A stretch of 64,000 bases of DNA from Acidimicrobiales bacterium. GTDB taxonomy: Bacteria; Actinomycetota; Acidimicrobiia; Acidimicrobiales; SHLQ01. The stretch is from assembly GCA_965216815.1 (NCBI GenBank), contig OZ244202.1, forward strand, positions 785,762-849,761, written 5' to 3'. This document shows, in pieces, positions 6,086-46,131 of the stretch (position 1 is the stretch's first letter; every line of letters begins with the position of its first letter). The position numbers and the translations under genes were made by a program. Under the pieces are notes generated by a model. It saw nothing but the letters and a program-made list of their open reading frames with translations. It was not told where the DNA came from and searched no databases.

Positions 6086-6133
6086 GAAACTTGGCGAACC
6101 CACTTCCTCTCGGGTTTCGCGAAAGGGAACGAC

Positions 6134-6460: not shown

Positions 6461-6512
6461 AGGGTCTGAGCGCCTGGACCGAGGGACCCGATTCGCGCAG
6501 TAGTCTCGCGTC

Positions 6513-7511
6513 GTGAATCCCGACGATGAGAGCGGCTTTCCATTGCGGGTCGGCGCGGTTGGAGAAGTCGTGCGCGACCTGCACCGCAGGCTCGCCGATC
6601 TCGGCTTTGCGCGCGCCGACGAGCGCTATGACCGCTACGACGATCTCACCGCCGATCTCGTTCGAGGATTCCAAGAAGCCCATGGTCTCGATGTCGACGG
6701 CGCATGCAGCCGCTCGACGTGGCGCGCCATTGTCGAGGCCGGGTTTCGGCTGGGAGACCGCTTCCTCTATCTGCACACGCCGATGCTCTACGGCGAGGAC
6801 GTGGCTCAGCTTCAGTTGGCGCTCGGCGCGCTCGGGTTCGATGCTGGACGTGTCGACGGCATTTTCGGCCAGGACACTCGGGCAGCTCTGACCGAGTTCC
6901 AACGCAACGTCGGCCTGACAGCGGACGGCATTGCGGGGCCCGATGTCGCGGCTGCGCTGGGTCGGCTCGGTCAGCGACCGGACCGCGCAACGCCTGTGTC
7001 GAACGTCCGGGAACAGGAGCGCCTCCTCGGCCGACCCGAACAATTTCTTCACTCAAGTAGAATATTTATTGGTGACTTCGGTGACCTCGCTGTCCTCACG
7101 AACGCCATCGCTCGCTGCCTACGCGACCGTGGTGGCCACGTCGTGACGCTGACGCACCCCGACCCCGAACAACACGCCACGAGCGCGAACGACTTCGACG
7201 CCGACGTCTACATCGGAGTCGAGCTCGTTGGCGCCTCCGAACCCTCATGTAGGTACTTCGAGGTGGCTGAATTCGAGTCGGTCGGCGGCCGCAGACTCGC
7301 CGAACGCATCTCATCAGCCCTCGAGCCGCTGCTCGGCGACTCGATCGCCGCACGCGGAATGCGCCTCCCAGTTCTACGCCGCACGCGCATGCCTGCGGTG
7401 TCGCTCAAGCTCGGTCCTCCGCGGACCATCGTTCGATCTACACCTGAACTTTCGCGTGTACTCGCCGGCGCCGTCTCAGCGTGGTTGTCGAGTCCCGTCC
7501 AAGCGCCATGA
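6513..7511 (+). CDS. cwlM: CwlM-like protein: two peptidoglycan-binding repeats plus an amidase_3-like domain
   Basis: Two PG_binding_1-like repeats ('VRDLHRRLADLGF...LVRGFQEAHGLDVDGACSRSTWRAI' and 'VAQLQLALGALGFDAGRVDGIFGQDTRAALTEFQRNVGLTADGIAG') and a C-terminal amidase-like region. Sits between trxA and parB as in mycobacteria. Confidence 0.7.
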   Translation: MNPDDESGFPLRVGAVGEVVRDLHRRLADLGFARADERYDRYDDLTADLVRGFQEAHGLDVDGACSRSTWRAIVEAGFRLGDRFLYLHTPMLYGEDVAQLQLALGALGFDAGRVDGIFGQDTRAALTEFQRNVGLTADGIAGPDVAAALGRLGQRPDRATPVSNVREQERLLGRPEQFLHSSRIFIGDFGDLAVLTNAIARCLRDRGGHVVTLTHPDPEQHATSANDFDADVYIGVELVGASEPSCRYFEVAEFESVGGRRLAERISSALEPLLGDSIAARGMRLPVLRRTRMPAVSLKLGPPRTIVRSTPELSRVLAGAVSAWLSSPVQAP

Positions 7512-23273: not shown

Positions 23274-23328
23274 CGCCGTTCCTCGCTTCGCTCGTCACTA
23301 ACCGAGTTTCGGCTCCGCCGAAACATCG
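23274..23328 (+). repeat. Conserved tRNA 3'-flank hairpin element
   Basis: 'CGCCGTTCCTCGCTTCGCTCGTCACTAACCGAGTTTCGGCTCCGCCGAAACATCG'. The same core follows both tRNA-Ser genes. Confidence 0.8.
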
Positions 23329-23375
23329 CCCCCTGAAAGCGTGATGAGTGTGGCGTTGATCACGCGAACCCCATC

Positions 23376-25796: not shown

Positions 25797-25802
25797 TCGT
25801 CG

Positions 25803-25876
25803 CGCGCGTGAGAGGACTTGAACCCCTAACCTTCTGATCCGTAGTCAGATGCTCTATCCAATTGAGCTACACGCGC
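25803..25876 (-). tRNA. tRNA-Arg (anticodon ACG)
   Basis: Hand-folded. Acceptor GCGCGTG/CACGCGC, anticodon arm TCTGA-CTACGGA-TCAGA, T arm AGGGGTTCAAGTCCTCT. Confidence 0.9.
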
Positions 25877-25922
25877 AGCGTCGGCCAGTCTACGTGCTGG
25901 TGAGCATGGGTCGAAACCGGAT

Positions 25923-28196: not shown

Positions 28197-28296
28197 GATC
28201 GATCCCTGAAGTAGCGACAGAAGCTGACGGTAGCCGGTCTCTGCGGTGTCAGGAGATCGAGCGGATTGCCCTCCTCGGTTGCAGCGATCCGCTGAG

Positions 28297-29511
28297 TCAC
28301 TTGCGGTTGAGCGACACCACCATCCGGAGCTCGAGCGACATGCGTTCCACCGAACGACGTGCCGCTCTCGCGCGAGGGAGCCAATCGACGGCGTTCTCGC
28401 ACGTCGCTTCGGGATCGGCGCCGGCTTCGTCGAGGACCGCTTGCATGTTGTCGAGCGCGGCTTTCAGAGGCGGCGGAGTCTGTGAGCTCCGCGCCTGTGG
28501 TTCGGTCGAGGTTGCCTCGACAAGGTTTGCCACGTCGGTGGCCTTGGTAGCGGCCTCGGCGGCCTCGAGTGCCCGATAGAGCTGCTCTGCTACGTCCTCA
28601 CCCGGCAGGGTGCACGATCCGTGTGGTGTGCTCAACGTGTCGAACACGTAAGCGTTTCGATGGTCCATTTCGGTGCGCACGTACCAGCGCTGAGCGTCGT
28701 CGTGAAGGAACGCCCAGATGTCGTTGATCTCCATCTCGTCTTTGCGGTCGAGAAAGGACCCGGTGTGTAGCCCGTAGCGGAGCTGGTGGCTGCGCCGGTC
28801 GATGGTTCGGCCGTCGGCCAACGCCAACGGCTGGACGATCTGTTGCAGCGGAATCCACAGGTTCACCAACATGAGCGACGCATGGCTGTTGGAGCCGTCG
28901 GGCGACTCGTAGCGGAACATCTCGGGTGCGCGGCCTTCCATCAGCTGGAGCAGAGGCGTTCCGAACACGTCCTGGTCGACATGAACCGACCTGGCGACGC
29001 CGTGGCCGTTCATGCCTTGCGAGAGTTCGCCGACGATCGCGAGACCGTTCGGACCCGAGCTTCGCATGATGAAGCCCTCGTCGGACACGTGGGCGACGGA
29101 GACGGTCGAACCTCCCGCCAGGGACAGCTCGGCGTTGTTCAATGCTGCCCTGATCGTCGCAGCGTCGTTGTCGCTGATCTCGCCGGCAGCACATACCCGT
29201 TCGCAGGCTTCTTGTAGCGAATCGATTCCCGATAGGTCGGCCACGTCGAACCCGACCTCGTGAAGGCTGGGCTGCAACTCCGTGCCTCGGGTGCCATCGA
29301 CCGCGCGACAGATGTGTCGTTCGACGTTCGCGTCGCCATAGGGCGCAGATGCGCGCGGTCCCGCCCGCATCAAGCCCGGGTGGTCGGGGTCCTCGATCGC
29401 CACCGAACGCGGCGAGAACCCTAGCTCGATGTCGAGTGTTGTGCGGTCCTGGCCCACGAGATCGGAGGGTAGCTCAGTCGACGCTGCGACTCCCAGCGAC
29501 TGCGGGGGCAA
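28297..29511 (-). CDS. Hypothetical protein, possibly a CmcJ/NvfI-like oxygenase fold
   Basis: 404-aa ORF. 'ARSVHVDQD' and 'LVNLWIPLQQIVQPLALADGRTI' resemble the HxD and N(V/L)WxPL motifs recalled for that family. The assignment is weak and from memory. Confidence 0.4.
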   Translation of the reverse strand: MPPQSLGVAASTELPSDLVGQDRTTLDIELGFSPRSVAIEDPDHPGLMRAGPRASAPYGDANVERHICRAVDGTRGTELQPSLHEVGFDVADLSGIDSLQEACERVCAAGEISDNDAATIRAALNNAELSLAGGSTVSVAHVSDEGFIMRSSGPNGLAIVGELSQGMNGHGVARSVHVDQDVFGTPLLQLMEGRAPEMFRYESPDGSNSHASLMLVNLWIPLQQIVQPLALADGRTIDRRSHQLRYGLHTGSFLDRKDEMEINDIWAFLHDDAQRWYVRTEMDHRNAYVFDTLSTPHGSCTLPGEDVAEQLYRALEAAEAATKATDVANLVEATSTEPQARSSQTPPPLKAALDNMQAVLDEAGADPEATCENAVDWLPRARAARRSVERMSLELRMVVSLNRK

Positions 29512-29579
29512 TGTTCGGTTTCGAGCGCCTATCGCCTTGTGGTGTCGTCGCGTACGAGCGCCCTAGCGTTCGCAGGGCC

Positions 29580-30512
29580 ATGACGTCGCCCTCCGAGCCG
29601 CAACCGAATCGCCCCGTCGTGCATAGCCGGCTCGGTACGGCGGCGGTCAGCGGCGCGATGATCGCATTCGGAATCAACAACGTGATCGTCCGCACGACGG
29701 ATCTGACAGGTGTCGTGACAGCGTCGTATCGGCTCGTTGTGGGAGTCGTCCTGCTCGTGGGTGTCCTGGTACTGATGCGTCGTAGTCCGAGCACCGCCGG
29801 GCTGAGGCTCGCACTGCTACCGGGCCTCGCCTACGGCTCGTCGATCCTGTTGTTCTTCAGTGCGTTCAAGGAGACCTCGATCGCCAATGCCACGCTTATA
29901 GCCGCTCTCCAGTCGGGGGTGAGCCTCGCCGTTGTGGGACCGATCTTCGGTGAGCGAGTGCGCTGGAGCGAGCTCATGTTGACGGCGCTTGCGACCGGGG
30001 GTGTGGCTTTGGTCATTTTCGGTGCCGAGACCGGAGGCTCCGGGTCGCTTCACGGCGACCTCTTGGCCGTGGCCGCGATGTTGGCCAATACGGCCTATTT
30101 CGTCCTCGGCAAACGTGCGCGCGAGGCATCGAAGGTTGAGGCTGGCGACTTCCAGGTCGGACTGCTCGTCGTCGCAACCATCTTGACGATTCCGTTCGTG
30201 CTGTTCGAGGGTCCGCCGCCGGTGCCCGATGCGACCGATTCGCTGCGGCTGTTGGTGCTAGCGGTCGGCGGAACGGCCGGGCACTTCGCGATCAACTGGG
30301 CGCACCGCCACGTGACCCTCACCGTCGCGTCGCTGTTGACCCTCGCCGTGCCGGTCGTTTCGTCGACCGTCGCATGGTTCGCGCTGGATGAACGCCTCGG
30401 AGCGCTTCAGTGGGTCGGTGCGGTTGTGACCTTGGCCGCGCTGGCTCTCGTCGTGATTCGAGCGGTGCGTCCGCTCCCGGAACCGATGCGGGTACGCGAC
30501 GAAGATGGCTAG
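29580..30512 (+). CDS. EamA/DMT-family transporter
   Basis: About 10 hydrophobic helices in two EamA-like halves. ATG at 29580 is preferred over the ORF-track start at 29349. Confidence 0.75.
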   Translation: MTSPSEPQPNRPVVHSRLGTAAVSGAMIAFGINNVIVRTTDLTGVVTASYRLVVGVVLLVGVLVLMRRSPSTAGLRLALLPGLAYGSSILLFFSAFKETSIANATLIAALQSGVSLAVVGPIFGERVRWSELMLTALATGGVALVIFGAETGGSGSLHGDLLAVAAMLANTAYFVLGKRAREASKVEAGDFQVGLLVVATILTIPFVLFEGPPPVPDATDSLRLLVLAVGGTAGHFAINWAHRHVTLTVASLLTLAVPVVSSTVAWFALDERLGALQWVGAVVTLAALALVVIRAVRPLPEPMRVRDEDG

Positions 30513-30520
30513 GCGACGGC

Positions 30521-30624
30521 GAGCGGAACTCGAAGCTCGGTTGGCGACGGGGTGTGGTTGCGCGGCGCGATGTTTCGAGCGGAGCTCGAAACTCGGTTAG
30601 CGACGAGCGAAGCGAGGAGCGACG
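30521..30624 (-). repeat. tRNA 3'-flank hairpin element (full copy 30568-30624) plus a degenerate second copy (30521-30550)
   Basis: On the sense strand: 'CGTCGCTCCTCGCTTCGCTCGTCGCTAACCGAGTTTCGAGCTCCGCTCGAAACATCG'. Confidence 0.75.
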
Positions 30625-30715
30625 CGGAGAGGGTGGGATTTGAACCCACGAGGGACCTTTCGATCCCTACTCCCTTAGCAGGGGAGCGCCTTCGACCTGA
30701 CTCGGCCACCTCTCC
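30625..30715 (-). tRNA. tRNA-Ser (anticodon GCT)
   Basis: Hand-folded. Acceptor GGAGAGG/CCTCTCC, anticodon arm CTCCC-CTGCTAA-GGGAG, long variable arm, T arm GTGGGTTCAAATCCCAC. Confidence 0.9.
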
Positions 30716-30755
30716 GAATGGACCGAGCGTAGCTGTTGCGTTCCCAGTGGCCCAC

Positions 30756-31772
30756 GTGGTTGTCGCTACATTGACGATCTTGCAAGCGATTCCTACTCCT
30801 GCGCTGATCGTTGACGGGCCGACCCTCGACCGGAACCTCGCCGCTATGGATGTGGTGCTCCCCGGGAAACGTCTGCGACCGCACGTGAAGGCGTTCAAGT
30901 CGACCGCGTTGGCGACGCGACTGGCCGCCGACGGCCATATTGCGTTCTGCGCCGCGACGCCACGGGAGATCGAAGGACTGGTTTCGGCCGGCCTCGGCGA
31001 AGATCTGCTGTTGGCGAACGAGTCGCTCGACGTCTCCCGTCTCGGGGCACTCGCCGATACCGCTAATATCACGGTCGCTGTCGACTCCGACGAGACACTC
31101 GCAGCCGTCATCGACGCCGACATTCGTTCGGTGCTAGTCGACATCGAGGTCGGGCTGCCTCGCTGCGGCTGCGACCCGGAAACCGCCGGTCGGCTCGCCG
31201 ATAAGGCTCGCAAGGCGGGTGTCGAGGTGCGCGGCGTCATGGGGTATGAGGGTCACCTGATGATGGTCGACGACCGTGAGGAGCGCACCGAACGGGTAGC
31301 GGAGGCCATGGGTGTGCTCATGAGAGCGGTCGACATCGTCGGTGGTGATGTGATTTCCGGTGGCGGTACGGGGACCTTCGACACGAACACCTGGTGTACC
31401 GAGATCCAGGCCGGCAGCTACACGCTCATGGACACCGACTACGCCAAGCTCGACCTGCCCTTCGAGATCGCGCTGAGCGTCGAGGCAACCGTCGTGTCGA
31501 CGAGTCCCAAAGGGTGGATCGTCGTCGATGCGGGTCTCAAGGCGTTTGGCATGGATCACGGTGACCCGACCTGGGACGGCGGCGAGGTCCTGTTCTGTTC
31601 GGACGAACACACCACCCTCGCGCCGGACGCCTTGGGCGACTGGAGCGTCGGCGATCGCATTCGGCTGCTACCGGCACACGTGGACCCCACCGTCGCCCGC
31701 CACGAGCACATGTGGGTGGTCGATGGCGGCGAGGTCGTCGACCGATGGGACGTCGACCTGCGCCACTGGTAG
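30756..31772 (+). CDS. PLP-dependent D-threonine-aldolase/D-serine-dehydratase-like enzyme (alanine racemase N-terminal fold)
   Basis: 'IPTPALIVDGPTLDRNLAAM', 'RPHVKAFKS' (PLP lysine), and a C-terminal 'LLPAHVDPTV'. The ORF-track start at 30552 runs through the tRNA. GTG at 30756 or 30747 are candidate starts. Confidence 0.7.
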   Translation: MVVATLTILQAIPTPALIVDGPTLDRNLAAMDVVLPGKRLRPHVKAFKSTALATRLAADGHIAFCAATPREIEGLVSAGLGEDLLLANESLDVSRLGALADTANITVAVDSDETLAAVIDADIRSVLVDIEVGLPRCGCDPETAGRLADKARKAGVEVRGVMGYEGHLMMVDDREERTERVAEAMGVLMRAVDIVGGDVISGGGTGTFDTNTWCTEIQAGSYTLMDTDYAKLDLPFEIALSVEATVVSTSPKGWIVVDAGLKAFGMDHGDPTWDGGEVLFCSDEHTTLAPDALGDWSVGDRIRLLPAHVDPTVARHEHMWVVDGGEVVDRWDVDLRHW

Positions 31773-31784
31773 GCGTGTCCGTCG

Positions 31785-31984
31785 CTTAGCCTGGATCCAC
31801 CGAAATGAGTTGATGCCCCTTAGTCCAGGCTTCGCATCACTGCCTTCCAGGCGGGCCGTTCTAGCGCCACGGAGGCGCTTTCATCGACGGTCACGAGGCG
31901 TACCTGTTGCCAAGAGCCTCCGTGGCTTGAACGGCCTTCCGGAGGGGCGATGTAAACGGCTAGAAACGGTGGATCCAGGCTTAG
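31785..31984. other. 200-bp element bounded by 18-bp inverted repeats, with nested internal inverted repeats (candidate structured RNA or MITE)
   Basis: Outer arms are 31785-31802 and 31967-31984 (one mismatch). Nested pairs are GGCCGTT 31854-31860 with AACGGCC 31930-31936, and GCCACGGAGGC 31866-31876 with GCCTCCGTGGC 31916-31926. Confidence 0.5.
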
Positions 31985-32610
31985 TCGACGGGTGCAGTGG
32001 ACGCGAAGGCCCGCGCTCGGTCGAGCGCTGCCAGTCGTTCGTCGCTGTTCGGGTTGCCGACCATGACGTAGTCGTCAGCGAGGTGGGGGTGCAGCTCTCC
32101 GTCGCCGTCGAGCATCCAGGGCAGGGCCATTCGTCTGGGTACGCGCACGCGTTCGGGCACCTCGCGGGTGCCGAAGACGATGTCCCAAAGCGCGATGCTG
32201 ACACCGTGGTTCGACAGCGGGTTGCCGAAGTGGTGGTGCAGATGGTGGCGCCGTAGCCAGGTCGAGTATCGCCCGGCGGGCCCTCGGAGATGTGAGATGG
32301 CGTGTTCGTACTCGTAGAGGAAGTAGCCGATGATCCAGCCCGCTCCGAGAGCCGCTCCGGCCGGCCCGAAAAGCAGATAGCCGATCGGCGCCCATAGACC
32401 GCCTCCGACGAGGAACACGCCCGCCCAGCTCAACAGGTGGGTGTAGGAGAAATGCCACTGCGCGTGCACGTGATGTTCCAGGTGCTCGCGGCTCATGATG
32501 CCCTTGCCGCCGAGCGCATGCATTGCAAAGCGGTGTAGCAGATACTCGGCGAGGGTCCACAGGACGATGCCGGCCAGCACCATGGCGACTATGGAGACGA
32601 AGGCACTCAT
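31981..32610 (-). CDS. Fatty acid hydroxylase / sterol desaturase-family membrane protein
   Basis: His boxes 'HRFAMH', 'HLEHHVH' and 'HHLHHH'. The ATG overlaps the upstream TetR stop (ATGA). Confidence 0.75.
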   Translation of the reverse strand: MSAFVSIVAMVLAGIVLWTLAEYLLHRFAMHALGGKGIMSREHLEHHVHAQWHFSYTHLLSWAGVFLVGGGLWAPIGYLLFGPAGAALGAGWIIGYFLYEYEHAISHLRGPAGRYSTWLRRHHLHHHFGNPLSNHGVSIALWDIVFGTREVPERVRVPRRMALPWMLDGDGELHPHLADDYVMVGNPNSDERLAALDRARAFASTAPVD

Positions 32611-33392
32611 CGTCCAACTCCTTCGGAGGATGTGTTCGTCGACCACTTTCGTGCGATCTCCCGGGCGGCATTCAGGTCGGCGGCCGGCGCGCCCCAGCCA
32701 CGCAACAACGATGCGGTCAGCTCGCCGCCGATGGCCCAGCCGTCGGTCGGAAGCCCGGTCGTGAGCTGATCGGTGAGGAGGGCTCCGTTCAGCGCGACGA
32801 CCCATGCGAACGTGCGCACGAGCGCACCTTCGACGGTGTTGCCGATCGGGTCGATCACCTCGGTGTGATCGTCGAGAGCTCCGCAAGCGACTGCGTCGGC
32901 TAGGAGTTGTCGAGGGAGGTCAAGCGCCTCCATCGCGGTTGGAACGACCGTCGCTGCATCCTGTACATCCTCGTGGCCGGGGGAGACCAGCAAGCGCTGC
33001 TGGAGCTGGAACTCGCGCGGGTATCGGCGCGGCGCGGCCAGGAAGAGGTCGGAGAATCCCCACAGTCGGGCCAGCGCCGCCACTCGAGTGTCGAGATCGT
33101 CATAGTCGTCCCGCAGCGCCCGGTTCCAGTGGTCGAGCTCGTCGAGTGATGCTCGCTTCAGTTCGACGATCGCACTCTGTTGTAGGGCCGCGATCAGAGC
33201 GCTTCTCGACTTGAAGTAGGTGTAGAGCGAAGCCGTTGCGTAGTCGGCGGCTTCGGCCAGAGCCCCCATCGTGAGGCTCTCTACGCCGCCGTCGTCGACG
33301 ATGTCGGCGGCCAGATCGAGCAGGTGCTGACGTCGGGCGTGGTGCTTGCGGGTCCGCCGATCGATCGATGGCGATACGGTTTCCGAATCCAT
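32607..33392 (-). CDS. TetR-family transcriptional regulator
   Basis: The HTH spans 'LTMGALAEAADYATASLYTYFKSRSALI'. Start is ATG at 33392 ('MDSETVSPS'). Confidence 0.8.
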   Translation of the reverse strand: MDSETVSPSIDRRTRKHHARRQHLLDLAADIVDDGGVESLTMGALAEAADYATASLYTYFKSRSALIAALQQSAIVELKRASLDELDHWNRALRDDYDDLDTRVAALARLWGFSDLFLAAPRRYPREFQLQQRLLVSPGHEDVQDAATVVPTAMEALDLPRQLLADAVACGALDDHTEVIDPIGNTVEGALVRTFAWVVALNGALLTDQLTTGLPTDGWAIGGELTASLLRGWGAPAADLNAAREIARKWSTNTSSEGVGR

Positions 33393-33406
33393 TTCGGAAA
33401 CCGTAT
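33374..33406. promoter_or_regulatory. Perfect 14-bp-arm palindrome overlapping the TetR start codon (candidate operator)
   Basis: ATACGGTTTCCGAA-TCCAT-TTCGGAAACCGTAT. The TetR ATG is the reverse complement of the spacer's CAT. Confidence 0.6.
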
Positions 33407-33462
33407 ATCTGTCAGTAGCTGTGTGCAACCTCGCGACGGCATGTGGTGGGGTAGGTACCGGA

Positions 33463-34173
33463 TCAGAGCCCGATGGCGTCGTCGAGTAGCGACCGGACGA
33501 CCTGAGACTTCGCGTCGGTGTATGCCCGGCGGTCGTAGCCGGGCTCGTCGACAAGTTCCTTCTTCACCGCCTCGTACCGCTCGCGTGCCTCGGGGCTCTG
33601 CCTGAGCAGGTCTCGTAGGAGCAGGTAGTCGAGCCACTGCGATTTGCCATGTTCGACGATGTGGATGTGCGCTACCCGGTACCAGGGCCGGGTCTCGAGG
33701 ACGCAAACGTGGCCGCCGCTGTCGCCGGCGTCGCCCCGGTAGATCCAACCCGTGCCCTTCAACGCCTCGAGAGCGGCATCGACGTCCGGTAGCGCCGTCA
33801 CTCCGACCGCTAGATCGACGATCGGCTTGGCGAGGAGACCGACCACGGCCGACGAGCCGATCTGTTCGACCGCCACGACTTTGTGCTGGAGGCGATCTGC
33901 GACCTCGTCTCGTAGCGACGCACCGGCGGTCACCCAGCCTTCGGTAGTGCGGTCGAGCCTCAATAGGTTGTAGTCGAGCCCGAGCCCTTCATCGGCGAGT
34001 GCCTGTGCGGTCGCATTTCGCGGGCGACTCATACGGGCTTGCATACCACGCGGACCTTGGCCGACCACATCAACCATGTGGTATGTCGGACCGAAGCCGA
34101 GATGATCCAGCGCCTGCTGGAGCGACAGGGTGCCCGTTCTGGCGAAACCAGCGCCGATGACTTCAAGAGTCAC
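33463..34173 (-). CDS. GrpB-family protein whose ORF carries an in-frame N-terminal fragment of a sulfotransferase-like gene
   Basis: The C-terminal roughly 190 aa fit GrpB ('VEQIGSSAVVGLLAKPIVDLAVGV', 'HIHIVEHGKSQWLDYLLLRDLLRQSPEARERYEAVK'). The first roughly 33 aa, 'MTLEVIGAGFARTGTLSLQQALDHLGFGPTYHM', fit a Sulfotransfer_4 N-terminus. Internal ATGs at 34044 and 34032 are plausible true GrpB starts. Confidence 0.6.
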   Translation of the reverse strand: MTLEVIGAGFARTGTLSLQQALDHLGFGPTYHMVDVVGQGPRGMQARMSRPRNATAQALADEGLGLDYNLLRLDRTTEGWVTAGASLRDEVADRLQHKVVAVEQIGSSAVVGLLAKPIVDLAVGVTALPDVDAALEALKGTGWIYRGDAGDSGGHVCVLETRPWYRVAHIHIVEHGKSQWLDYLLLRDLLRQSPEARERYEAVKKELVDEPGYDRRAYTDAKSQVVRSLLDDAIGL

Positions 34174-34215
34174 GATCCCGTTCTACCCGCGACTGCCGGC
34201 CAGCACTTGGTCAAC

Positions 34216-34563
34216 TCAGAGGTCGAGATGAATGCGCAACGCTTCATCGAGCTGTTCAGCGAGTACGAATCCGAGCGAACCAACCACCTCGCCGAGCCGT
34301 TCGACCGCCACGGATCGAACCTGTTCGGCCTGGGCCTTGGAATCGACATCGAGACCGGTCTCGTCTGCTGGCAACAGCACCTGGAAGGGATGGATGCGAT
34401 CGGTGTTCGAAGTCACTGGCACAACCGTGATCACCCCTCGGCCGAGTCGAGCCGCCGTCGTGTTCGCTCCGTCGTTGCTCACAACAACGGCAGGACGGGT
34501 TAGGGCTGCTTCGCTGCCGATGACCGGGTCGAGATTGACCAGGCGGATCTCCGTGCGACGCAT
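34216..34563 (-). CDS. mazF: MazF/PemK-family endoribonuclease toxin
   Basis: 'IRLVNLDPVIGSEAALTRPAVVVSND...VVPVTSN...ADETGLDVDSKAQAEQVRSV'. ATG at 34563 overlaps the antitoxin stop (ATGA). Confidence 0.8.
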   Translation of the reverse strand: MRRTEIRLVNLDPVIGSEAALTRPAVVVSNDGANTTAARLGRGVITVVPVTSNTDRIHPFQVLLPADETGLDVDSKAQAEQVRSVAVERLGEVVGSLGFVLAEQLDEALRIHLDL

Positions 34564-34778
34564 CAGCGGTCGACGACGGCGCTGTCCCACGCGTCACTAG
34601 CCGCAGTATCGTCCGCCCATTCGGCGAAGGCCGCTGCGTATGCGTCGCCGAGTTCGGATGCACGAAGCAAGCGAATGGCGCGCTGAACTGCCGCAGATCG
34701 AGATTCGATCTGGTGGGTCTTTGAGTAGTTGTCGAGGAACTCGACATCTTCGTCCGGGATGCTCACGCTGACCTTCAT
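34563..34778 (-). CDS. Ribbon-helix-helix antitoxin
   Basis: 'MKVSVSIPDEDVEFLDNYSKTHQIESRSAAVQRAIRLL' shows the RHH pattern, with an acidic C-terminal tail. Lies directly upstream of mazF. Confidence 0.7.
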   Translation of the reverse strand: MKVSVSIPDEDVEFLDNYSKTHQIESRSAAVQRAIRLLRASELGDAYAAAFAEWADDTAASDAWDSAVVDR

Positions 34779-34786
34779 TCCCTCGA

Positions 34787-34815
34787 TACTACCCCAGTAG
34801 TAAGCTGTTTACTAC
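34787..34815. promoter_or_regulatory. Candidate toxin-antitoxin operator
   Basis: GTAGTAA-GCTGT-TTACTAC palindrome at 34797-34815 plus an extra TACTACC half-site at 34787-34793, immediately upstream of the antitoxin start. Confidence 0.4.
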
Positions 34816-34858
34816 CATCCTGATCTGCCATGAGCCGGTCATGTGACGGGTGCCGGCG

Positions 34859-35596
34859 TCAGGAACTCGAGGTGTCAGGCGCGCCAGCGATGGCGATTCG
34901 ATACCCGACATCGAACTCCCGGAGTTCGCGCAGGTGCCCGTAGCGCCGGTCCCACTTCCCGCTCGCAAGGTCTGCGGCTAGTCGCTGGGATGCGGCGGCC
35001 CGAGCCTCGGGAGTCAGCCGAGCGATCCATGACATCCCCGCCTGGTTGGCCGGGTCGAGGTACTGCTCGGGCCGATTCCAGAAGGCGGCTCCTGCGGCGT
35101 CTTCGCAGTCGTGGGGCACATGCAAGTGCCGGGTCTCCACAACGTGAAGAACGTCGTGCACCACCTCGTGGTGGGGTCGGGAAGATCTTGGTTCGGCTCC
35201 AAAGTACTCGAACGGCCAGAACCCGTGATCGTCCAGCGGTTCGTAGTAGAGCACAATCTGTTTCGCGGAAACGCGACGCATCTCGGTAAGGCCCTGCGTT
35301 GCGTCTGTCCAGTGGTGAACGGTTGAGAGAGCCATTGCGACGTCGAATGCTCCGGTCCGAAATGGAAGTCGCTCGGCGGCAGCCTGAACCACGGGGTGAT
35401 CGGACCGCCGCTGCCGGATCATCGTTGTCGATGGCTCGGCTGCCACGACAGAATGCTGTGGCTCATAGTTCCCCGAGCCTGCGCCAACGTTGAGCAGCAA
35501 CTCCCAGTCGCCGAGCGCATTCTCGATCGCAGCTTTGAACCGGGGATCCTCTCGTCTCGTCGCCGAGTACGTGTGACCGATCTGGTCGTACAGCAC
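34859..35596 (-). CDS. Class I SAM-dependent methyltransferase
   Basis: 'LLNVGAGSGNYE' motif I, then 'LPFRTGAFDVAMALSTVHHW'. Confidence 0.75.
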   Translation of the reverse strand: MLYDQIGHTYSATRREDPRFKAAIENALGDWELLLNVGAGSGNYEPQHSVVAAEPSTTMIRQRRSDHPVVQAAAERLPFRTGAFDVAMALSTVHHWTDATQGLTEMRRVSAKQIVLYYEPLDDHGFWPFEYFGAEPRSSRPHHEVVHDVLHVVETRHLHVPHDCEDAAGAAFWNRPEQYLDPANQAGMSWIARLTPEARAAASQRLAADLASGKWDRRYGHLRELREFDVGYRIAIAGAPDTSSS

Positions 35597-35720
35597 CTCA
35601 TCATTGTCTCATGGCATGACGACGTTTCGCCCCGCCCGAGCGCGCTTGAAACGACAACCATGCTCGCCGTGTCGTTGTCAGGCGGTGTTCTGATCGGGCG
35701 TTTGGACCACACTGGCTGAC

Positions 35721-36203
35721 GTGGATCGAGTGTTGGTGCTGGGGCGAGGTGGATCTGGCAAGTCAGTGTTCTCAGGTGCCCTCGGAGCCAGGATCGGTGC
35801 CGAAGTAGTCGAACTCGACAAGGAGTTCTGGAGTCACAACCTCGAACCATTGACCGCCGCCGAGTGGGCTGACCGTCAACGCAGCCTGGCTCGGAAGCAG
35901 CGCTGGGTGATGGATGGTGACCTGGGTCCGTACGACGTCCTCGAGCCTCGCCTCCGCCGAGCTGACACCGTCGTCGTGCTCGATCTTCCGGTCCTGTTGT
36001 GTGCATGGCGAGCGTGGCGGCGCGGGCGCGAACGCCGTGACTTCTGGATATGGACGCTGCGTTGGCGGCGCGAGAGCCGTCCCCAGATTCTCGCGGCTGT
36101 CGCAGCATTCATTCCTGATGTTGACCTCGTCGTCCTCACGAATCGTCGCGCAGTCGAACGTTGGCTCTCAGGCGTCGACAAGAATGCGAAACGCGGCTAC
36201 TGA
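35721..36203 (+). CDS. P-loop NTPase (adenylate-kinase / topology-modulation-protein-like)
   Basis: 'VLVLGRGGSGKSV' Walker A, then 'WVMDGDLGPYD...ADTVVVLDLP'. GTG start. Confidence 0.65.
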   Translation: MDRVLVLGRGGSGKSVFSGALGARIGAEVVELDKEFWSHNLEPLTAAEWADRQRSLARKQRWVMDGDLGPYDVLEPRLRRADTVVVLDLPVLLCAWRAWRRGRERRDFWIWTLRWRRESRPQILAAVAAFIPDVDLVVLTNRRAVERWLSGVDKNAKRGY

Positions 36204-36285
36204 GGTCGGAGGCCGAACGGCGCGGTCCTCACGGGATGGGGTTCGAACTCCGACGTCGGTGTAGACAGCGACGTTTCGGCGCAGC
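36202..36285. repeat. Solo copy of the tRNA-flank-like module found in the 37835-38187 array
   Basis: 'GAGGTCGGAGGCCGAACGGCGCGGTCCTCACGGGATGGGGTTCGAACTCCGACGTCGGTGTAGACAGCGACGTTTCGG' is similar (not computed) to the B-type module. Its terminal hairpin is truncated. Confidence 0.75.
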
Positions 36286-36421
36286 AACTCTCGCGCACAG
36301 CCACGCTCTAATCGGATTCCCTTCTGAGATTTGGACCGTGCATCTGCGTGCCATTCGGTATGCCCTCTCGGTTGTCGCGCCGCGGCCCGTCACTCCCACG
36401 CTCAAGAACATTCAAATCAGC

Positions 36422-37021
36422 TCACGCTGGATCCGGATTGATGTCAGCCACACCAATGGACTCATGGCCGACTTCGCCCGCCTCGGCTGTGGAAGGCGTC
36501 GCCTCTGTCTTGTAGGCAGCGACGAACGCAGTGATGGCGGCATCGATGCGAGATTCGATCTCTGGGGGGCTGGCGTGGTTCACACCAAGCGCCTTACGGA
36601 GTTGCTGGTGCCCGACGATGCCACCGAGGAACTGCTCGGCAGCGATCTGGGGATCGTCGATGGCGATCGCGCGCTCCTCCCGCTTAGCGGTCAGGAACCT
36701 GGTGAGGCGGTCGTAGCTCACTCGTGGGCCATGATCGAACAGCGTCTGGCCGAGCTCGGGGAATCGGCTATGCTCGCCGAGCGCCAGCTGCAACAGGACG
36801 ATAGTTCGGTCATTGAGTGCGCCAGCGGCGACAGCGCGTCCGAGGATCTGAAGGCCTTCTTCCAACCCCACTCGACTCCAGTCTTCGTTGGCTGGGGCCG
36901 CCACGGTCGAGCCTGTGATGTCATCGATGATCGCGCGGAACAGAACTTCTTTGGACTCGAAGTACCGGTACAAGGTCGCCTTCGAGCCACCGGTGGCGGC
37001 CACCACCTGATCCATGCTCAC
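36422..37021 (-). CDS. TetR-family transcriptional regulator (true start probably upstream of the annotated GTG)
   Basis: HTH 'VSMDQVVAATGGSKATLYRYFESKEVLF'. The frame stays open upstream and encodes the helix-1-like 'IDRRSRYLQAALDLFAEHGFNG', but contains no ATG, GTG or TTG. Confidence 0.75.
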   Translation of the reverse strand: MSMDQVVAATGGSKATLYRYFESKEVLFRAIIDDITGSTVAAPANEDWSRVGLEEGLQILGRAVAAGALNDRTIVLLQLALGEHSRFPELGQTLFDHGPRVSYDRLTRFLTAKREERAIAIDDPQIAAEQFLGGIVGHQQLRKALGVNHASPPEIESRIDAAITAFVAAYKTEATPSTAEAGEVGHESIGVADINPDPA

Positions 37022-37168
37022 GCCATTGAACCCGTGTTCCGCGAAGAGGTCTAGGGCGGCCTGGAGATACCGAGATCGTCGATCGATGACAAAACTGTAC
37101 CGTTCCGTTTGACTCCCAGAAACTCGAGGCGTACTGTACGGTTCCGTACATGAAAGAAGGAGTCAAGA

Positions 37169-37639
37169 ATGGATGAGGCATTCGTTGTACGGGGTGACGA
37201 AGCGCTCTCGTTTACCACGACACCTACCGACCAGCTCCGATTTCTCTGTGCGGGAGGTCCCAACATGCCCGACGTCGAGGACGAACGTCTGGCGCCAGGT
37301 GATGGTCCGCCTCTGCACCGTCACAAATGGGCCACCTGGTCGATCGTGATCGAGGGGACCTTCTTGATCCGCATCGGTGACGACGACCACAACGTCGGAC
37401 CTGGCGACCTCATTTTCACCCCACCGGACGTGATCCACACCTTCGCCTGTACCGGCGAGATCGACGGCCGGCTCATCCACTTCAACTGGCCTGGCGGGTT
37501 CCATCACCTGTACGCCGAGCTCGCCGAAGCGTTCAAAGGCGACGGCCCACCCGACTTCGGGGCCATGGCCGAGGCCGCCACTCGTCACAACGCGGAGATC
37601 CTTGGCCCTCCGCTTTCCATGACCACCCAAGCCGAGTAG
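37169..37639 (+). CDS. Cupin-domain protein
   Basis: 'GDGPPLHRHKWATWSIVIEGTFLIRIGDDDHNVGPGDLIFTPPDVIHTF' carries both cupin motifs. AAGGAG ribosome-binding site upstream. Divergent from the TetR gene. Confidence 0.7.
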   Translation: MDEAFVVRGDEALSFTTTPTDQLRFLCAGGPNMPDVEDERLAPGDGPPLHRHKWATWSIVIEGTFLIRIGDDDHNVGPGDLIFTPPDVIHTFACTGEIDGRLIHFNWPGGFHHLYAELAEAFKGDGPPDFGAMAEAATRHNAEILGPPLSMTTQAE

Positions 37640-37670
37640 CCACGAGCTGACTGCACCCGGGTAGCCCGCG

Positions 37671-37818
37671 CAGACAACCGTTACCTGGCCCGGGCAGGTG
37701 TCGCCGACAGACAACCGTTACCTGGCCCGGGCAGGTGTCGCCGACAGACAACCGTTACCTGGCCCGGGCAGGTGTCGCCGACAGACAACCGTTACCTGGC
37801 CCGGGCGGGTGTCGCCGC
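37671..37818. repeat. Tandem repeat, 37 bp x 4
   Basis: The unit is 'CAGACAACCGTTACCTGGCCCGGGCAGGTGTCGCCGA'. Three copies are perfect and the fourth is degenerate at its 3' end. Each unit contains the near-palindrome CCTGGCCCGGGCAGG. Confidence 0.9.
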
Positions 37819-37834
37819 GCGGGGCGCCGACGGC

Positions 37835-38187
37835 GACGTTTCGGCGGAGGCGAAACTCGGGTAGAGACGAGCGAAGCGAGGAACGGCGCGGTCCTAACGG
37901 GATGAGGTTCGAACCCCGACGTGGTTACAGACAGCGATGTTTCGGCGTAGCCGAAACTCGGTTAGTGAGGCCGGAGGCCGAACGGCGCGGTCCTAACGGG
38001 ATGAGGTTCGAACCCCGACGTGGTTACAGACTGCGATGTTTCGCCGGAGGCGAAACTCGGTTAGAGACGAGCGAAGCGAGGAACGGCGCGGTCCTAACGG
38101 GATGAGGTTCGAACCCCGACGTGGTTACAGACAGCGATGTTTCGGCGTAGCCGAAACTCGGTTAGTGAGGCCGGAGGCCGAACGGCG
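37835..38187. repeat. Tandem array of about 100-bp tRNA-3'-flank-like modules (A1-B1-A2-B2) ending at tRNA-Ser(TGA)
   Basis: Units are A1 37835-37935, B1 37936-38034, A2 38035-38135 and B2 38136-38187. Each holds a GTTTCG-loop-CGAAAC hairpin, a GGTTAG..CGGCGCGG linker and a T-arm-like GGTTCGAACC segment. In B2 that last segment is replaced by the real tRNA. Confidence 0.85.
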
Positions 38188-38274
38188 CGGAGGGAGGGGG
38201 ATTCGAACCCCCGGGACCCCGAAAGGCCCGCCAGTTTTCAAGACTGGTGCAATAGTCCGCTCTGCCATCCCTCC
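38188..38274 (-). tRNA. tRNA-Ser (anticodon TGA)
   Basis: Hand-folded. Acceptor GGAGGGA/TCCCTCC, anticodon arm CCAGT-CTTGAAA-ACTGG, long variable arm, T arm GGGGGTTCGAATCCCCC. Confidence 0.9.
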
Positions 38275-39313: not shown

Positions 39314-40024
39314 ATGGAACGACTGTATTTCCGTCAGCTTCTCTCGGGCCGTGACTTCGGCACATCCGACCCGGTCGCCCAGCAGATGGTCAACTTCGTC
39401 TATCTCATTGGCGACGCCGAGACGCGCGAGGCTCTGGTCGTCGATCCCGCGTATGACATCGATTCGATCGTCGACATCGCCGAGGCTGATGGAATGACGA
39501 TCGTCGGGGCGCTCGCCACGCACCACCATCAGGATCACGTCGGCGGGAACATGATGGGTTATCCGATTCAGGGTGTGCACGAGCTGAAGCAGAGGGTCGA
39601 TGTGCCGGTGCACGTACAGTCGGTGGAGGCGGAGTTCGTTTCGAAGGTGACCGGGCTCGAAGCTGCGGACATGGCCACCCACGAGGGAGGCGACGTGTTG
39701 TCGATCGGCGAGATCGACATAACGCTGATTCATACACCGGGCCACACGCCCGGATCACAGTGTTTCCTGGTCGAGAATCGCCTCGTTGCCGGCGACACGT
39801 TGTTCCTGGATGGTTGCGGACGCACCGACCTGCCCGGAGGCGACCCTCGAGAGCTCTACCGGAGCTTGACCCAGCGATTGGCGAAGGTCCCCGACACAGC
39901 GGTGCTCTTTCCAGGCCACCAATACTCACCGGCGCCGTCGGCGTCGATGGGCGACACGCGCACACACAATTTCGTCTTCAAGCCGCAGACCGAACAGCAG
40001 TGGCTTGCGATGTTCGGTCAGTGA
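39314..40024 (+). CDS. MBL-fold metallo-hydrolase (glyoxalase II-like)
   Basis: 'THHHQDHVGG' metal motif and 'HTPGHTPGS'. Confidence 0.8.
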   Translation: MERLYFRQLLSGRDFGTSDPVAQQMVNFVYLIGDAETREALVVDPAYDIDSIVDIAEADGMTIVGALATHHHQDHVGGNMMGYPIQGVHELKQRVDVPVHVQSVEAEFVSKVTGLEAADMATHEGGDVLSIGEIDITLIHTPGHTPGSQCFLVENRLVAGDTLFLDGCGRTDLPGGDPRELYRSLTQRLAKVPDTAVLFPGHQYSPAPSASMGDTRTHNFVFKPQTEQQWLAMFGQ

Positions 40025-42138
40025 GATTCGGGCTTGCCGGGTTCGTTGATGACCGGTGGGCCTGTGGCCGGTTCTTGATCGACCGCCGTCTCCTGCCACA
40101 TCTTGAAGCAGCTGTCGCAGCTCATGTGACGGATCCCGCGCCCGTTGTCGACGATGTCGGCGCGGGCCGGGGCACCGCAGTGCGGGCAGATGTCCGGAAC
40201 GATCAGTTCGTCTCCCGCCTTCTTGCCCTTGCGCTGAGCCTTCTTTTCTTCCTTCTTGCGCTTCCGTCGCTCTGACCAGCTGCGCAGACGTGAGCTCTTC
40301 TGGTCGAGTCTCTCGCGTTCCTCGTCGGCCGCCTCGTCGACCGTCGTGAAGAACTCGTGGTCCTCTTCGGGATAGTCGCTGCTCAGGTCGTCGACTTCAT
40401 CGGTGGGCGGTTCCGCCGATCGGCCGGCGAGCATCGAGTCGATCGCCTCCCGATAGTCGCCGGTGAACGCTGGGGGCATCGAGTCGACATCTCTGCCTTC
40501 GTTCGCATCTGGAGCGAGGGGCGGTTGCGGGGAAGCGGTCGGTGCGGAACGACGGTCCGCCGCGGACGGAGGGGCCATCGGGGGAGGTGCCTCGATCATC
40601 CCGTCGACGGGCGGGGCGGGTGGTGTTGCGTTCGTTTCGGTGTCGAGTGTTGGGGTTTGGTCGACGGGTGCGACGGGTGCGACCGGTGCGACGGGTGCGA
40701 CGGGTTCGGGGGTTTGGTCGACGGGTGCGACGGGTTCGGGGGTTTGGTCGACGGGTGCGACGGGTTCGGGGGTTTGGTCGACGGGTGCGATGGGTGCGAC
40801 GGGTTCGGGGGTTTGGTCGACGGGTGCGACCGGTGCGACGGGTTCGGGGGTTTGGTCGACGGGTGCGACCGGTGCGACGGGTGTTGGGGTTTGGTCGACG
40901 GGTGCGATGGGTTCGGGTTCGGGGGTTTGGTCGACGGGTGCGATGGGTGCGACGGGTTCGGGGGTTTGGTCGACGGGTGCGACGGGTGCGACGGGTGCGA
41001 TGGGTTCGGGGGTTTGGTCGACGGGTGCGTCGGGTGCGACGGGTGCGATGGGTTCGGGGGTTTGGTCGACGGGTGCGTCGGGTGCGACGGGTGCGATGGG
41101 TTCGGGGGTTTGGTCGACGGGTGCGACCGGTGCGTCGGGTTCGGGGGTTTGGTCGACGGGTGCGACCGGTGCGACGGGTGCGATGGGTTCGGTGTCGGTG
41201 TGGAGGTCGAAGGTGGGGAGTTCGTCGACGGGTGCGATGGGTTCGGGTTCGAGGAGCTGATCGACCGGTTTGGTGTCGGCTGGACCGACGGCGAGATCGA
41301 AGTTCGGAATGGCCGTCTCGACGAGGCTTGCTTCGTCCAGGCCCGACATCTCGTCGGGGTGCACGGTTATCGCATCTTCCTCAGCCATCGCGGCGGCGAG
41401 GTCGCCAAAGTCGTCTGGTTCGTCCGCCTCCTCGTCGCTCGACAGGAGACGACTCCACAGACTCGAACGGCGCGTGAAGATCTCGTCCTCGCCCTCGGTG
41501 TCGGGTTCGGGGGTTTGGTCGACGGGTTCGGTGTCGGGTTCGTCGGTGTTGGTTGCTGGTGCTGTGTCGAAGAGCGCGTTGCGGTCGAAGAGCGGGGTGT
41601 CTGGCTCGGAGTCCCCCAGGCCAGTCGCCGGAGCGGGGTCCTCAACCGTCGCATCGCGGTTGTCGAGGATCGCGCGGCTGTCGTGCGTCGCAGCGCGGAA
41701 TGTCGTTACCCGAGTACCGCGTCGCGCTTTTGCGGGCTGGTCACCGACCGACGCCTCGTCCGGCCGCGGCTCCTCGACAGGTGCCGCCAAAGGACCGGCG
41801 GTCGTGAAGGATGGTGCGACCATCGCCGACGGTTGCTCGGCCCCGGCTGTTGCCCCATCGGCCATGGATGACGCCAGCTCCCGTTCCTTCGTGGGCGAGA
41901 CGGTCTGTGGCGCTGGCTCCGATGGGGCGTCGATGGTCGAGAACGATGTCGGAAGGCTGCTGTCGTCCGACGACGGCGCCTGCCAGATCGGCAGCCCCGG
42001 CGACGGCGCCTGCGAGGTGCTGGGGGTGGCCACACCATCGGTCTCGGCGTCGCGAGGCTCGTCGCCAGTGCCACGACGGGCAGCGGACTTCTTCCCGAGA
42101 CGTGACAATCGCCTGCCAAGGCTCATGTGGACCTTCAT
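40018..42138 (-). CDS. Proline-rich tandem-repeat protein with a C-terminal basic segment and a CxxC...CxxC zinc-ribbon-like domain
   Basis: 706-aa ORF. The central roughly 200 aa are 'PEP(V/I)APVAPVDQT' repeats. The C-terminus is '[18 protein letters not shown]...[32 protein letters not shown]'. No family recognised. Confidence 0.6.
40652..41250. repeat. Intragenic tandem DNA repeats (variable 9-39 bp units) encoding the P/V/A/D/Q/T repeats
   Basis: Reiterated GGTTTGGTCGACGGGTGCGA(C/T)GGGT... units on the + strand. Confidence 0.85.
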
Positions 42139-45866: not shown

Positions 45867-46131
45867 CTTCGCTCGGCGCTCGTTTCGGCTTTGCCGAAAC
45901 GTTGCGCCCTCGCTTCGTTTGCGCTCTGCGCGCGTTTGTCTCGCGCTCCGCTCCGGGGCGCTCGAGCCACGGCGGCTCTTGGCATCTGTTCGTTGAGTGG
46001 GTGTTGGTGCTCGCTCGGTGCTGCGCACCTCGCTTCGTTTCTGCTCGCGTTCCGGCTTCGCCGGCACTTTCGGGCTCAACTCAGCGGTGCCTGGAGGCTG
46101 CGCGGTGAGGTGCCCAAGCCCGAACCACATG

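Follow-up and report, generated by a model that had tools for sequence, protein, structure and literature searches.

What produced the four contiguous modules of about 100 bp that abut the 3' end of a tRNA-Ser(TGA) gene in this Acidimicrobiales genome, and do they record the passage of integrating elements through a tRNA? A reading made from the letters alone (the sequence-only reading) had taken each module for a duplicated tRNA 3' end plus flank, left by repeated site-specific integration and excision at an attB site, or else for a member of a tRNA-derived repeat family. Our analysis of the window, by which we mean the whole 64,000-nucleotide stretch of the contig, leads to another answer for the flank. 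The linker and hairpin of each module are not tRNA-derived; they are the core of a dispersed Acidimicrobiales repeat family, here called element E, that lies mostly away from tRNAs and is adjoined by one in just 9 of the 53 loci surveyed. The T-arm-like pieces between the modules, here called T', are judged from alignment to be decayed copies of the 3' end of tRNA-Ser(TGA) itself. We consider it probable that the array is a minisatellite of E, an element resembling the MIRUs, or interspersed repetitive units, of mycobacteria, amplified in the trailer of the tRNA in combination with T'.

Architecture of the array

The array occupies 37825-38187, and Tandem Repeats Finder, ARAGORN and Rfam together bear out the description of four modules fused to tRNA-Ser(TGA). 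Tandem Repeats Finder reported 37829-38165 with a period of 101 (3.4 copies, 87% matches) and 37829-38190 with a period of 200 (1.8 copies, 97% matches), and inspection of the modules showed that two linker types alternate, with three identical T' pieces between them. ARAGORN and Rfam place the tRNA at 38187/38188-38274 on the minus strand, and the array begins at the first base past its discriminator. In tRNA sense the order is tRNA, B2 core, spacer and T'; A2 core, spacer and T'; B1 core, spacer and T'; and A1 core, beyond which lie a 37-bp x4 repeat and a convergent cupin gene, reached at its 3' end. The parts are as follows.

38188..38274, minus strand: authentic tRNA-Ser(TGA), found by ARAGORN and by the Rfam tRNA model (54.9 bits); CCA not encoded; in relatives, too, it stands downstream of pheA.
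38139..38187, minus strand: E copy B2, laid out as CGCCGTTC, a GGCC-TCC-GGCC hairpin, TCAC, TAACCGAG and hairpin 2 (GTTTCGGC-TAC-GCCGAAAC); nhmmer core model E-value 3.6e-15; both hairpins appear in the fold.
38089..38138, minus strand: spacer ATCGCTGTCTGTAACCAC (38121-38138) and T' (38089-38120, exact 32-mer).
38038..38088, minus strand: E copy A2, with A-type linker CCTCGCTTCGCTCGTCTC, no real hairpin 1, TAACCGAG and hairpin 2; nhmmer E-value 8.3e-13; fold.
37988..38037, minus strand: spacer and second T' (37988-38019, exact 32-mer).
37939..37987, minus strand: E copy B1, identical to B2; nhmmer E-value 2e-15.
37889..37938, minus strand: spacer and third T' (37889-37920, exact 32-mer).
37825..37888, minus strand: E copy A1, which forms the array's distal edge, with TACCCGAG, a mismatched hairpin 2 and then GTCGCCGTCGGCG; nhmmer E-value 7.1e-09; alignment A2.

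The T' 32-mer GTCGGGGTTCGAACCTCATCCCGTTAGGACCG is present in three perfect copies where shuffles expect none, and, as a correction to the sequence-only reading, no T' follows the distal module A1; a fourth copy with three mismatches at 36223-36254 had escaped that reading. The GTTTCG-N7-CGAAAC hairpin that it reported is found at four sites in the array (37838, 37939, 38038 and 38139) and also after tRNA-Ile (23306) and tRNA-Leu (45882), giving six exact hits against 0.25 expected. Its two linker types likewise stand: the A linker, CGCCGTTCCTCGCTTCGCTCGTC(T)C, differs from the tRNA-Ile trailer at 1 of 38 bases and is close to the tRNA-Ser(GCT) trailer, and the B linker, CGCCGTTCGGCCTCCGGCCTCAC, is the one that trails the genuine tRNA-Ser(TGA). 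The spacer motif CTGTCTGT(A/G)AAC recurs in another locus, L064.

Nothing in the array modules is a working tRNA. ARAGORN, and Rfam even at E-values up to 10, recovered the genuine tRNA alone and scored no module as a tRNA, and neither the Rfam gathering scan of the whole window nor the permissive scan of the array returned a family besides genuine tRNAs, weak matches to the TD-2, sX4 and plastid untranslated-region models being far under threshold. No terminator was predicted inside the array and neither hairpin is trailed by a U-tract. No open reading frame (ORF) spans the array on the sense strand; the array follows a tRNA and forms no ORF relay of the kind described below for gene-linked copies. 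The fold of the whole array has a z-score of -3.35, which we regard as uninformative about long-range RNA structure since it is driven by GGTTCGAACC palindromes of neighbouring modules pairing together. Integron attC and CRISPR readings of the array were dropped, as it has no GTTRRRY core and no spacers of the CRISPR kind.

Element E is a dispersed Acidimicrobiales repeat family

A search with the pattern TAACCGAGTTTCG-N7-9-CGAAAC in one genome per species (185,579 species) returned 53 loci, 49 of them in Acidimicrobiales, Acidimicrobiia or Actinomycetota metagenome-assembled genomes (MAGs); the remaining four, isolated hits outside this phylum, were put down to chance. Gene-linked and tRNA-linked copies coexist within single genomes, as in CBDCGK01 (L001, L019 and L051 versus L040) and Ww550 (L004 versus L009 and L013). 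This lineage-wide, non-coding element is a core of about 50 nt, frequently with a 3' extension of about 45 nt, and is tandem in about 13 loci with periods of 51, 54, 98, 99 and 101 nt. The conserved core consists of (C)GCCG, a variable hairpin, (TC)AC-TAACCGAG and an 11-bp hairpin, GTTTCGNN..NNCGAAAC, closed by CGAG/ATCG; in folds of single units hairpin 2 lengthens to about 11 bp by pairing of the CGAG of TAACCGAG with the downstream ATCG. No paper in the literature searched joins Acidimicrobiia, a repetitive element and tRNA, and the core string is in none, so the family appears to be undescribed.

The two hairpins show strong covariation. In an alignment of 57 distinct copies (alignment A1), on which all pairs were counted, seven of the eight pairs of hairpin 1 are changed on both sides, and so are the free inner pairs of hairpin 2 (CG 33, GC 19). 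Overall, 84.7% of hairpin cells are paired against 30-53% with slid partners, a value reached by none of 500 shuffles. G-U pairs are nearly absent among the approximately 770 paired cells, which hints at a palindrome maintained at the DNA level rather than a constraint on RNA only.

The placement of E is exact. Behind tRNA-Ile, Ser(TGA), Ser(GCT), Val(TAC), Val(CAC), Leu(CAG) and Arg(TCG) its first base is the one next to the discriminator, and behind tRNA-Leu(TAG) it begins 2-3 nt further on. Its occupancy is kept at orthologous loci across species (L013/24/27/30, L005/19/42, L037/47 and L008/36). The tRNA genes that bear E do not encode CCA and have C-GCCG in the CCA position, and in the same lineages (L043, L059, L060 and L064) tRNA genes that do encode CCA have canonical hairpin-and-T terminators and no E. 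In L043 (3319-3485) a copy begins 17 nt past the end of a small signal recognition particle (SRP) RNA match in Rfam (73 bits), and E thus also trails a stable RNA gene that is not a tRNA.

Within the window, an E trailer starts at the base past the discriminator of three tRNAs (Ile, Ser-GCT and Ser-TGA) with the layout CGCCG, a 15-17-nt linker, TAACCGAG, GTTTCG-N7/9-CGAAAC and ATCG. Copies outside the array are the following.

23274..23330, plus strand: single A-type E copy forming the trailer of tRNA-Ile(GAT), starting at discriminator +1; nhmmer E-value 9.6e-13.
30528..30624, minus strand: A-type E copy (30566-30624) forming the trailer of tRNA-Ser(GCT), with a second degenerate core (CAACCGAGCTTCGAG.., about 30528-30546); nhmmer E-value 1.4e-07 and a weak second hit.
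45868..45900, plus strand: E remnant in the trailer of tRNA-Leu(CAG), CTTCGCTCGGCGCTC and then hairpin GTTTCGGC-TTT-GCCGAAAC; TAACCGAG is absent.
36186..36290, minus strand: solo degenerate unit, 1.6 kb from the array; alignment A2 and split nhmmer hits.

The solo unit contains a hairpin-2 remnant, a spacer, the T' copy with three mismatches, a B-type linker, TAGCCGCG and GTTTCGC, and it supplies the final codons and the stop (..NAKRGY*) of a P-loop-like ORF at 35721-36203 on the plus strand that has no Pfam hit. Together with the array it forms direct repeats bracketing a divergent pair of TetR (36422-37021, minus strand) and cupin (37169-37639, plus strand) genes.

The T' piece derives from the 3' end of tRNA-Ser(TGA)

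The part of each module that does come from the tRNA is T', about 32 nt spanning the 5' half of the T-arm, the T-loop and a mutated acceptor strand. Aligned to the 3' end of the real gene, GGGGTTCGAA is identical, CCTCATCCC stands against CCCCCTCCC, and an insertion of 6-7 nt precedes CCG; none of 200 random 30-mers scores as well in local alignment. No T-arm can form, since mutation has turned the 3' half of the T-stem from CCCCC into CCTCA. The T' pattern had no hit in the 185,579 species genomes and none in the JGI metagenomes, and T' is thus local, confined to this genome and no dispersed family. Dispersal away from tRNAs, which the sequence-only reading had named as telling against it, is accordingly what we found for the flank part of the module and not for T'.

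A metagenomic locus, L063, is a young homologue of the same architecture and offers what we take to be the decisive parallel for the origin of T'. There, two identical copies of E follow tRNA-Ser(TGA), separated by 17 nt that repeat the tRNA 3' end exactly (GAATCCCCCTCCCTCCG); unique DNA comes next, and as in the window the last E has no tRNA-end copy behind it. In the tRNA-Leu arrays of L017 and L004 the pieces between units match the T-arm or acceptor of the local tRNA-Leu. Taken together, these loci show that inter-unit pieces are copies of whatever precedes E locally. That the tRNA 3' end and its flank were duplicated repeatedly, as first proposed, is therefore supported by the alignment of T' to the tRNA-Ser 3' end and by the parallel in L063.

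Gene-linked copies of E behave like MIRUs

In other Acidimicrobiales genomes E is found mainly just behind stop codons and where operon genes meet. At 17 of the 41 loci having a co-oriented long ORF upstream, its stop ends 1-5 nt before the GCCG landmark of E, and at 17 of 26 testable loci an unbroken relay of ORFs overlapping by -4/-1 leads from the upstream gene through mini-ORFs of 32-35 codons into the downstream gene, the upstream stop overlapping a start (ATGA, GTGA or TAATG) and the mini-ORF stop overlapping the next start. The unit length is 98 nt (3x33-1) where each unit has its own overlap and 99 nt in the in-frame array of L033, and the in-frame arrays of L036 (51 nt x3) and L002 (54 nt x5) lie inside one mini-ORF, with 17-18 codons per unit and ATGA overlaps at both ends. 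Different subfamilies read the core in two frames (..LTEFR.. versus ..TNRVS..), which argues that the ORF property is conserved and the peptide is not; a functional-peptide reading of the mini-ORFs was rejected for this reason. Since E carries its own start/stop overlaps with the flanking genes, its insertion keeps them translationally coupled.

This design is that of the MIRUs (Supply et al. 1997), 40-100-bp tandem units in operon intergenic regions whose ORFs overlap adjacent genes and whose filled sites have direct repeats (PMC3184786), and which insert at start codons with -4 coupling while barely disturbing expression (PMC12548453). The senX3-regX3 MIRU array of Mycobacterium tuberculosis (L067 1355-1593, obtained via RegX3) has 3.1 units of 77 bp (77 = 3x26-1) that begin with ATGACC, end with ..GCTGATGA and have TGATGA overlaps. 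The nhmmer model of the E core had no hit in that array, and pairwise local alignments of E and MIRU in both orientations were no better than shuffles (p 0.22-0.65). A supposed likeness of one MIRU strand to the A-type linker was abandoned when the real M. tuberculosis sequence showed no significant similarity. Element E therefore works like a MIRU yet is not a sequence member of the MIRU family.

The likeness extends to units of 50-100 bp that are commonly tandem, variable in copy number and present in short and long variants; to intergenic positions in operons, co-orientation with the gene and unit ORFs overlapping the upstream stop and downstream start by -4/-1; to a 3n-1 unit length when units carry their own overlap (98 nt for E, 77 nt in M. 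tuberculosis); and to internal GC-rich inverted repeats, filled and empty sites with direct repeats, and a high-GC actinobacterial host. The two differ in that E belongs to another class of Actinomycetota and has a two-hairpin core with the TAACCGAG linker, in that its duplicated flanks are about 17-18 nt or more versus tetranucleotides for MIRUs, and in that the start of many copies coincides exactly with a tRNA 3' end and that of one copy lies 17 nt after an SRP RNA; the window's own array, moreover, forms no ORF relay. We know of no report of MIRU copies starting at tRNA 3' ends or after SRP RNA. RegX3 of M. tuberculosis (P0121-P0130) is called at 227, 245, 248, 256, 277, 318 and 347 aa among assemblies, lengths that likely reflect gene callers extending the ORF into upstream MIRU units, as seen for P0123 in L067.

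E resembles the repetitive extragenic palindromes (REPs) and the bacterial interspersed mosaic elements (BIMEs) as well. REPs are palindromes of 21-65 bp that lie in alternating orientations and are mobilised by REP-associated tyrosine transposases (RAYTs). Like them, E is a short GC-rich, hairpin-forming intergenic repeat found after stops and between operon genes, arrayed and co-transcribed with flanking genes; unlike them, its units are directional, up to 100 nt long, equipped with coupled mini-ORFs and exactly abutted to gene ends. No conserved GTAG stands beside either hairpin in alignment A1. We conclude that E is best placed among intergenic minisatellites of the MIRU/REP kind, as one whose affinity for tRNA 3' ends is unusual.

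Gain, loss and copy number

Filled and empty sites can be compared directly at the kbl-tdh junction. In L014 one E unit lies between repeats of the form GAGGTGATC(GC/AG)CTGATGA (GAGGTGATCGCCTGATGA upstream, GAGGTGATCAGCTGATGA downstream), an 18-nt duplicate, and the site is empty in L068 and L071/L072 (89% kbl identity) and in L070 (80%), where the native kbl C-terminus and the stop/start overlap are kept. In L069 (85%) the junction is filled with another E variant and just GTGACC is duplicated. Perfect or near-perfect duplicated flanks of 15-18 nt also occur in L005 and L042, longer and diverged ones in L039 and L037/L047, and many loci have none. E does not fit the description of a MITE, or miniature inverted-repeat transposable element, as its unit ends are not mutual inverted repeats and its duplicated flanks are at least 17-18 nt versus the 2-10 bp expected. 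In L039 (4085-4200) VTSTEAT is encoded both at the true gene start and in the flank duplicated upstream of E, with differences at synonymous positions, one of them being AGT versus TCC, both Ser, which is unexpected for a neutral duplicate.

Copy number is variable. L056 and L057, whose pheA protein is identical, differ in having one unit and at least two; L008 has one and L036 three; and the window has four where L054 has one partial unit. The variation among relatives foreseen by the sequence-only reading is thus real, and it includes complete absence at the orthologous tRNA-Ser locus, which in the window as in all relatives compared has pheA upstream of tRNA-Ser(TGA).

L054: pheA identity 76%; one partial E after tRNA-Ser(TGA), then a different downstream gene.
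L055-57: pheA identity 75%, the protein identical among the three; variant E, as one unit in L056 and at least two in L057.
L058 and L059 (including Rhabdothermincola): pheA identity 64-66%; no E; tRNA-Ser(TGA) is succeeded at 65-160 bp by tRNA-Ser(GCT) and, in L058, by tRNA-Arg(ACG) 2.4 kb further along.

Do the modules record integration at a tRNA?

The same locus supplies circumstantial support for the first proposal, that the array is a stack of attachment-site (att) scars from repeated integrase-mediated integration and excision at the 3' end of tRNA-Ser(TGA), with E and its spacer as conserved arms of the integrating elements or of miniature non-autonomous derivatives. Gene content past the tRNA is variable, as the sequence-only reading expected. 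The closest relatives have different genes downstream of tRNA-Ser(TGA), and tRNA-Ser(TGA), tRNA-Ser(GCT) and tRNA-Arg(ACG), a tight cluster after pheA in the distant relatives L058 and L059, lie at 38.2, 30.6 and 25.8 kb in the window, spread over 12.5 kb (25802-38274). About 7.4 kb of accessory genes, which encode a D-Ser dehydratase-like protein, a fatty acid hydroxylase, two TetR regulators, GrpB, a methyltransferase, a P-loop-like ORF and a cupin, separate the two tRNA-Ser genes that are adjacent in those relatives. The array shares with the att repeats of phages, integrative and conjugative elements and islands a copy of the tRNA 3' end downstream of an intact gene, variable content, and a distal repeat, the solo T'+E unit 1.6 kb away, that brackets accessory genes.

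A second bracketed segment is found in L017, where 2.33 kb (4377-6706) lie between two T'-like direct repeats (..TCCCGCCAGGCGCAC) in the tRNA-Leu array. A patatin-like protein and a Phd/YefM antitoxin are encoded in the segment, along with an unknown ORF, and the sister locus L004 (93-95% identical) lacks the segment. L004 has different cargo beside its own tRNA-Leu E array (4488-5150), with a small ORF on the opposite strand. The variable segments of both loci start with CCCCGACACC-N6-TTCTNACTTGAACCC and end near CTCAACCTNCGNAT, which raises the possibility of a mobile cassette making use of the arrays; the CCCCGACACC..TTCTNACTTGAACCC motif gave no convincing alignment to the window.

What argues against integration is that the searches met no machinery or vehicle, and the distribution of E. 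When 13 ORFs in the 30.5-40.0 kb interval were scanned with Pfam, neither a tyrosine or serine recombinase nor an integrase came up, in agreement with the earlier remark that none is present, and the 2.33-kb insert of L017 has no recombinase either. The array had no blastn match among 50,697 phage and 72,556 plasmid records, and the E core motif is absent from 2.9 million viral contigs. Unlike att repeats, the units are contiguous with no cargo between them, and each is dominated by an element found mostly away from tRNAs. About 40 tRNA-free loci have E at stop/start junctions with locus-specific duplicated flanks, copies that a tRNA-specific integrase cannot generate. The ends fit poorly as well: at an attR the terminal unit should have T', which it does not, and the repeats that bracket TetR-cupin consist of hairpin 2 and spacer rather than the tRNA core, their homology running through E and spacer with hairpin 2, not T', as the proximal boundary. 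We therefore regard integration and excision at this tRNA as unlikely to have built the array.

Other readings of the element

A bolder reading of E itself is that it is an active non-autonomous mobile element that inserts exactly at the 3' boundaries of gene products, copies about 17-18 nt of the upstream target and, by start/stop overlaps of its own, relays operon translation. Its target rule, which would be without precedent, would have it insert one base beyond a tRNA discriminator, or else at a stop codon or stop/start overlap or no more than a few bases away. We put this forward as a speculation with a small chance of being right. If true, it would imply RNA-3'-end-guided or ribosome- or translation-linked insertion, or a recombinase that reads such boundaries, and it could also explain how MIRUs move, a question that to our knowledge has been open since 1997. 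The E/T' arrays might in addition be landing pads for small accessory cassettes (TetR-cupin in the window, patatin/Phd in L017).

E could also be a functional cis-element that serves the 3'-end processing, stabilisation or termination of tRNA precursors and mRNAs, the array being a redundant multimer. Its strict co-orientation with the upstream gene, its exact abutment to tRNA 3' ends and stop codons, the strong covariation of its hairpins, its conserved occupancy across species and its absence from CCA-encoding tRNA genes with canonical terminators are all consistent with such a role. Against it, E is also found within operons, between genes coupled in translation, a place where termination would do harm; the hairpins are without U-tracts and the array without a predicted terminator; and L064 has a separate canonical terminator after E. 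Orthologous tRNA-Ser genes of related genera do without E, copy number differs among strains with identical pheA protein, and the near absence of G-U pairs is a better fit to a DNA-level palindrome. On balance we find a functional cis-element improbable. That the T-arm-like modules are tRNA pseudogenes, or a tRNA-derived family like the short interspersed nuclear elements (SINEs) yielding tRNA-like small RNAs, is most improbable: GGGGTTCGAAC resembles a T-stem and T-loop and the piece ends in ..GGACCG right before CGCCG like a tRNA 3' end, but the tRNA searches found nothing, the mutated T-stem cannot close, the GGTTCGAACC palindrome pairs solely between modules in the fold, and T' is unique to this genome with its sole further copy 1.6 kb away.

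A proposed history of the array

The preferred reading, a MIRU-like minisatellite amplified in a tRNA trailer, can be laid out as a sequence of events. E would first have settled in the trailer of tRNA-Ser. A second E would then have arrived, or been duplicated, along with the last ~17-30 nt of the tRNA, either through target-site duplication on insertion at the tRNA/E junction or through tandem duplication of the tRNA 3' end together with E; this step matches the target duplications at filled sites and the young state in L063. The copied tRNA end would have decayed to T'. Insertion or rearrangement of the TetR-cupin segment would have parted one unit to 36.2 kb, and as this solo unit retains one tRNA-like base (CCCCA) lost from the array copies, it may have split off early. 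Unequal recombination or slippage would recently have amplified units of E, spacer and T', the last step being a duplication of the ~200-bp A+B doublet (97% identity, three identical T'). The array probably lies in the pre-tRNA trailer, transcribed and removed by 3' processing, in which case it would be harmless.

Several observations weigh against this account or limit it. Every full E copy in the 64-kb window is tRNA-linked, and MIRU-like operon behaviour is hence demonstrated in other genomes only. Flank duplication is clear in about a quarter to a third of loci (some 12-15 first units, with a control weakened by arrays in the same loci). The survey was seeded by an exact 19-base pattern that itself fixes TAACCGAG and the outer hairpin-2 pairs, so that their lack of variation comes from the search and the share of tRNA-linked copies cannot be read as unbiased; E variants (TTACCGAG, TAACCGCC and GTTGC..GCAAC hairpins) turned up in relatives that were reached in other ways. 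The three T' copies do not differ among themselves but have clearly diverged from the tRNA, which requires divergence before amplification, or homogenisation. Between A and B units the hairpin regions are exchanged as whole blocks, with spacers and T' identical, a pattern beyond simple duplication and point mutation for which gene conversion from other copies of E, or insertion of a second E type, has to be invoked.

Other repeats in the window

Three further repeat features lie in the window. Between the array and the cupin gene stands a separate tandem repeat:

37671..37817, no strand assigned: 37-bp x4 tandem repeat, 99% matches, with the palindrome ACCTGGCCCGGGCAGGT in each unit.

It was found neither elsewhere in the window nor in any fetched locus, and it has TGTCTGT and GACACC in common with the sequence around it. 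At 4535-4607 lies a perfect 34-bp x2.1 tandem repeat (CCTGAAGTGACCCCGGTGTCAGACCAAAGTTTCA). Two genes upstream of pheA, an ORF of 706 aa (40018-42138, minus strand), unrelated to the array, has a C-terminal CxxC..CxxC, and imperfect 9/39/48-bp coding repeats at 40662-41192 give it proline-rich repeats.

Significance

MIRUs are used worldwide for tuberculosis typing, and we know of no explanation of their origin and movement. Element E provides a second MIRU-type system, sequence-unrelated and of the same translation-relay design, in a different actinobacterial class, and its exact start at tRNA 3' ends adds to anything that we know to be described for MIRUs. The many filled and empty and copy-number-variable E sites in MAGs offer a comparative system for working out the target rule and the enzyme. 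For annotation, E arrays are a hazard that produces spurious ORFs and N-terminal extensions, as the RegX3 calls of 227-347 aa illustrate for MIRUs. In the genomes of the Acidimicrobiales, such arrays can mimic the att scars of tRNA genes, and they mark variable hotspots downstream of those genes.

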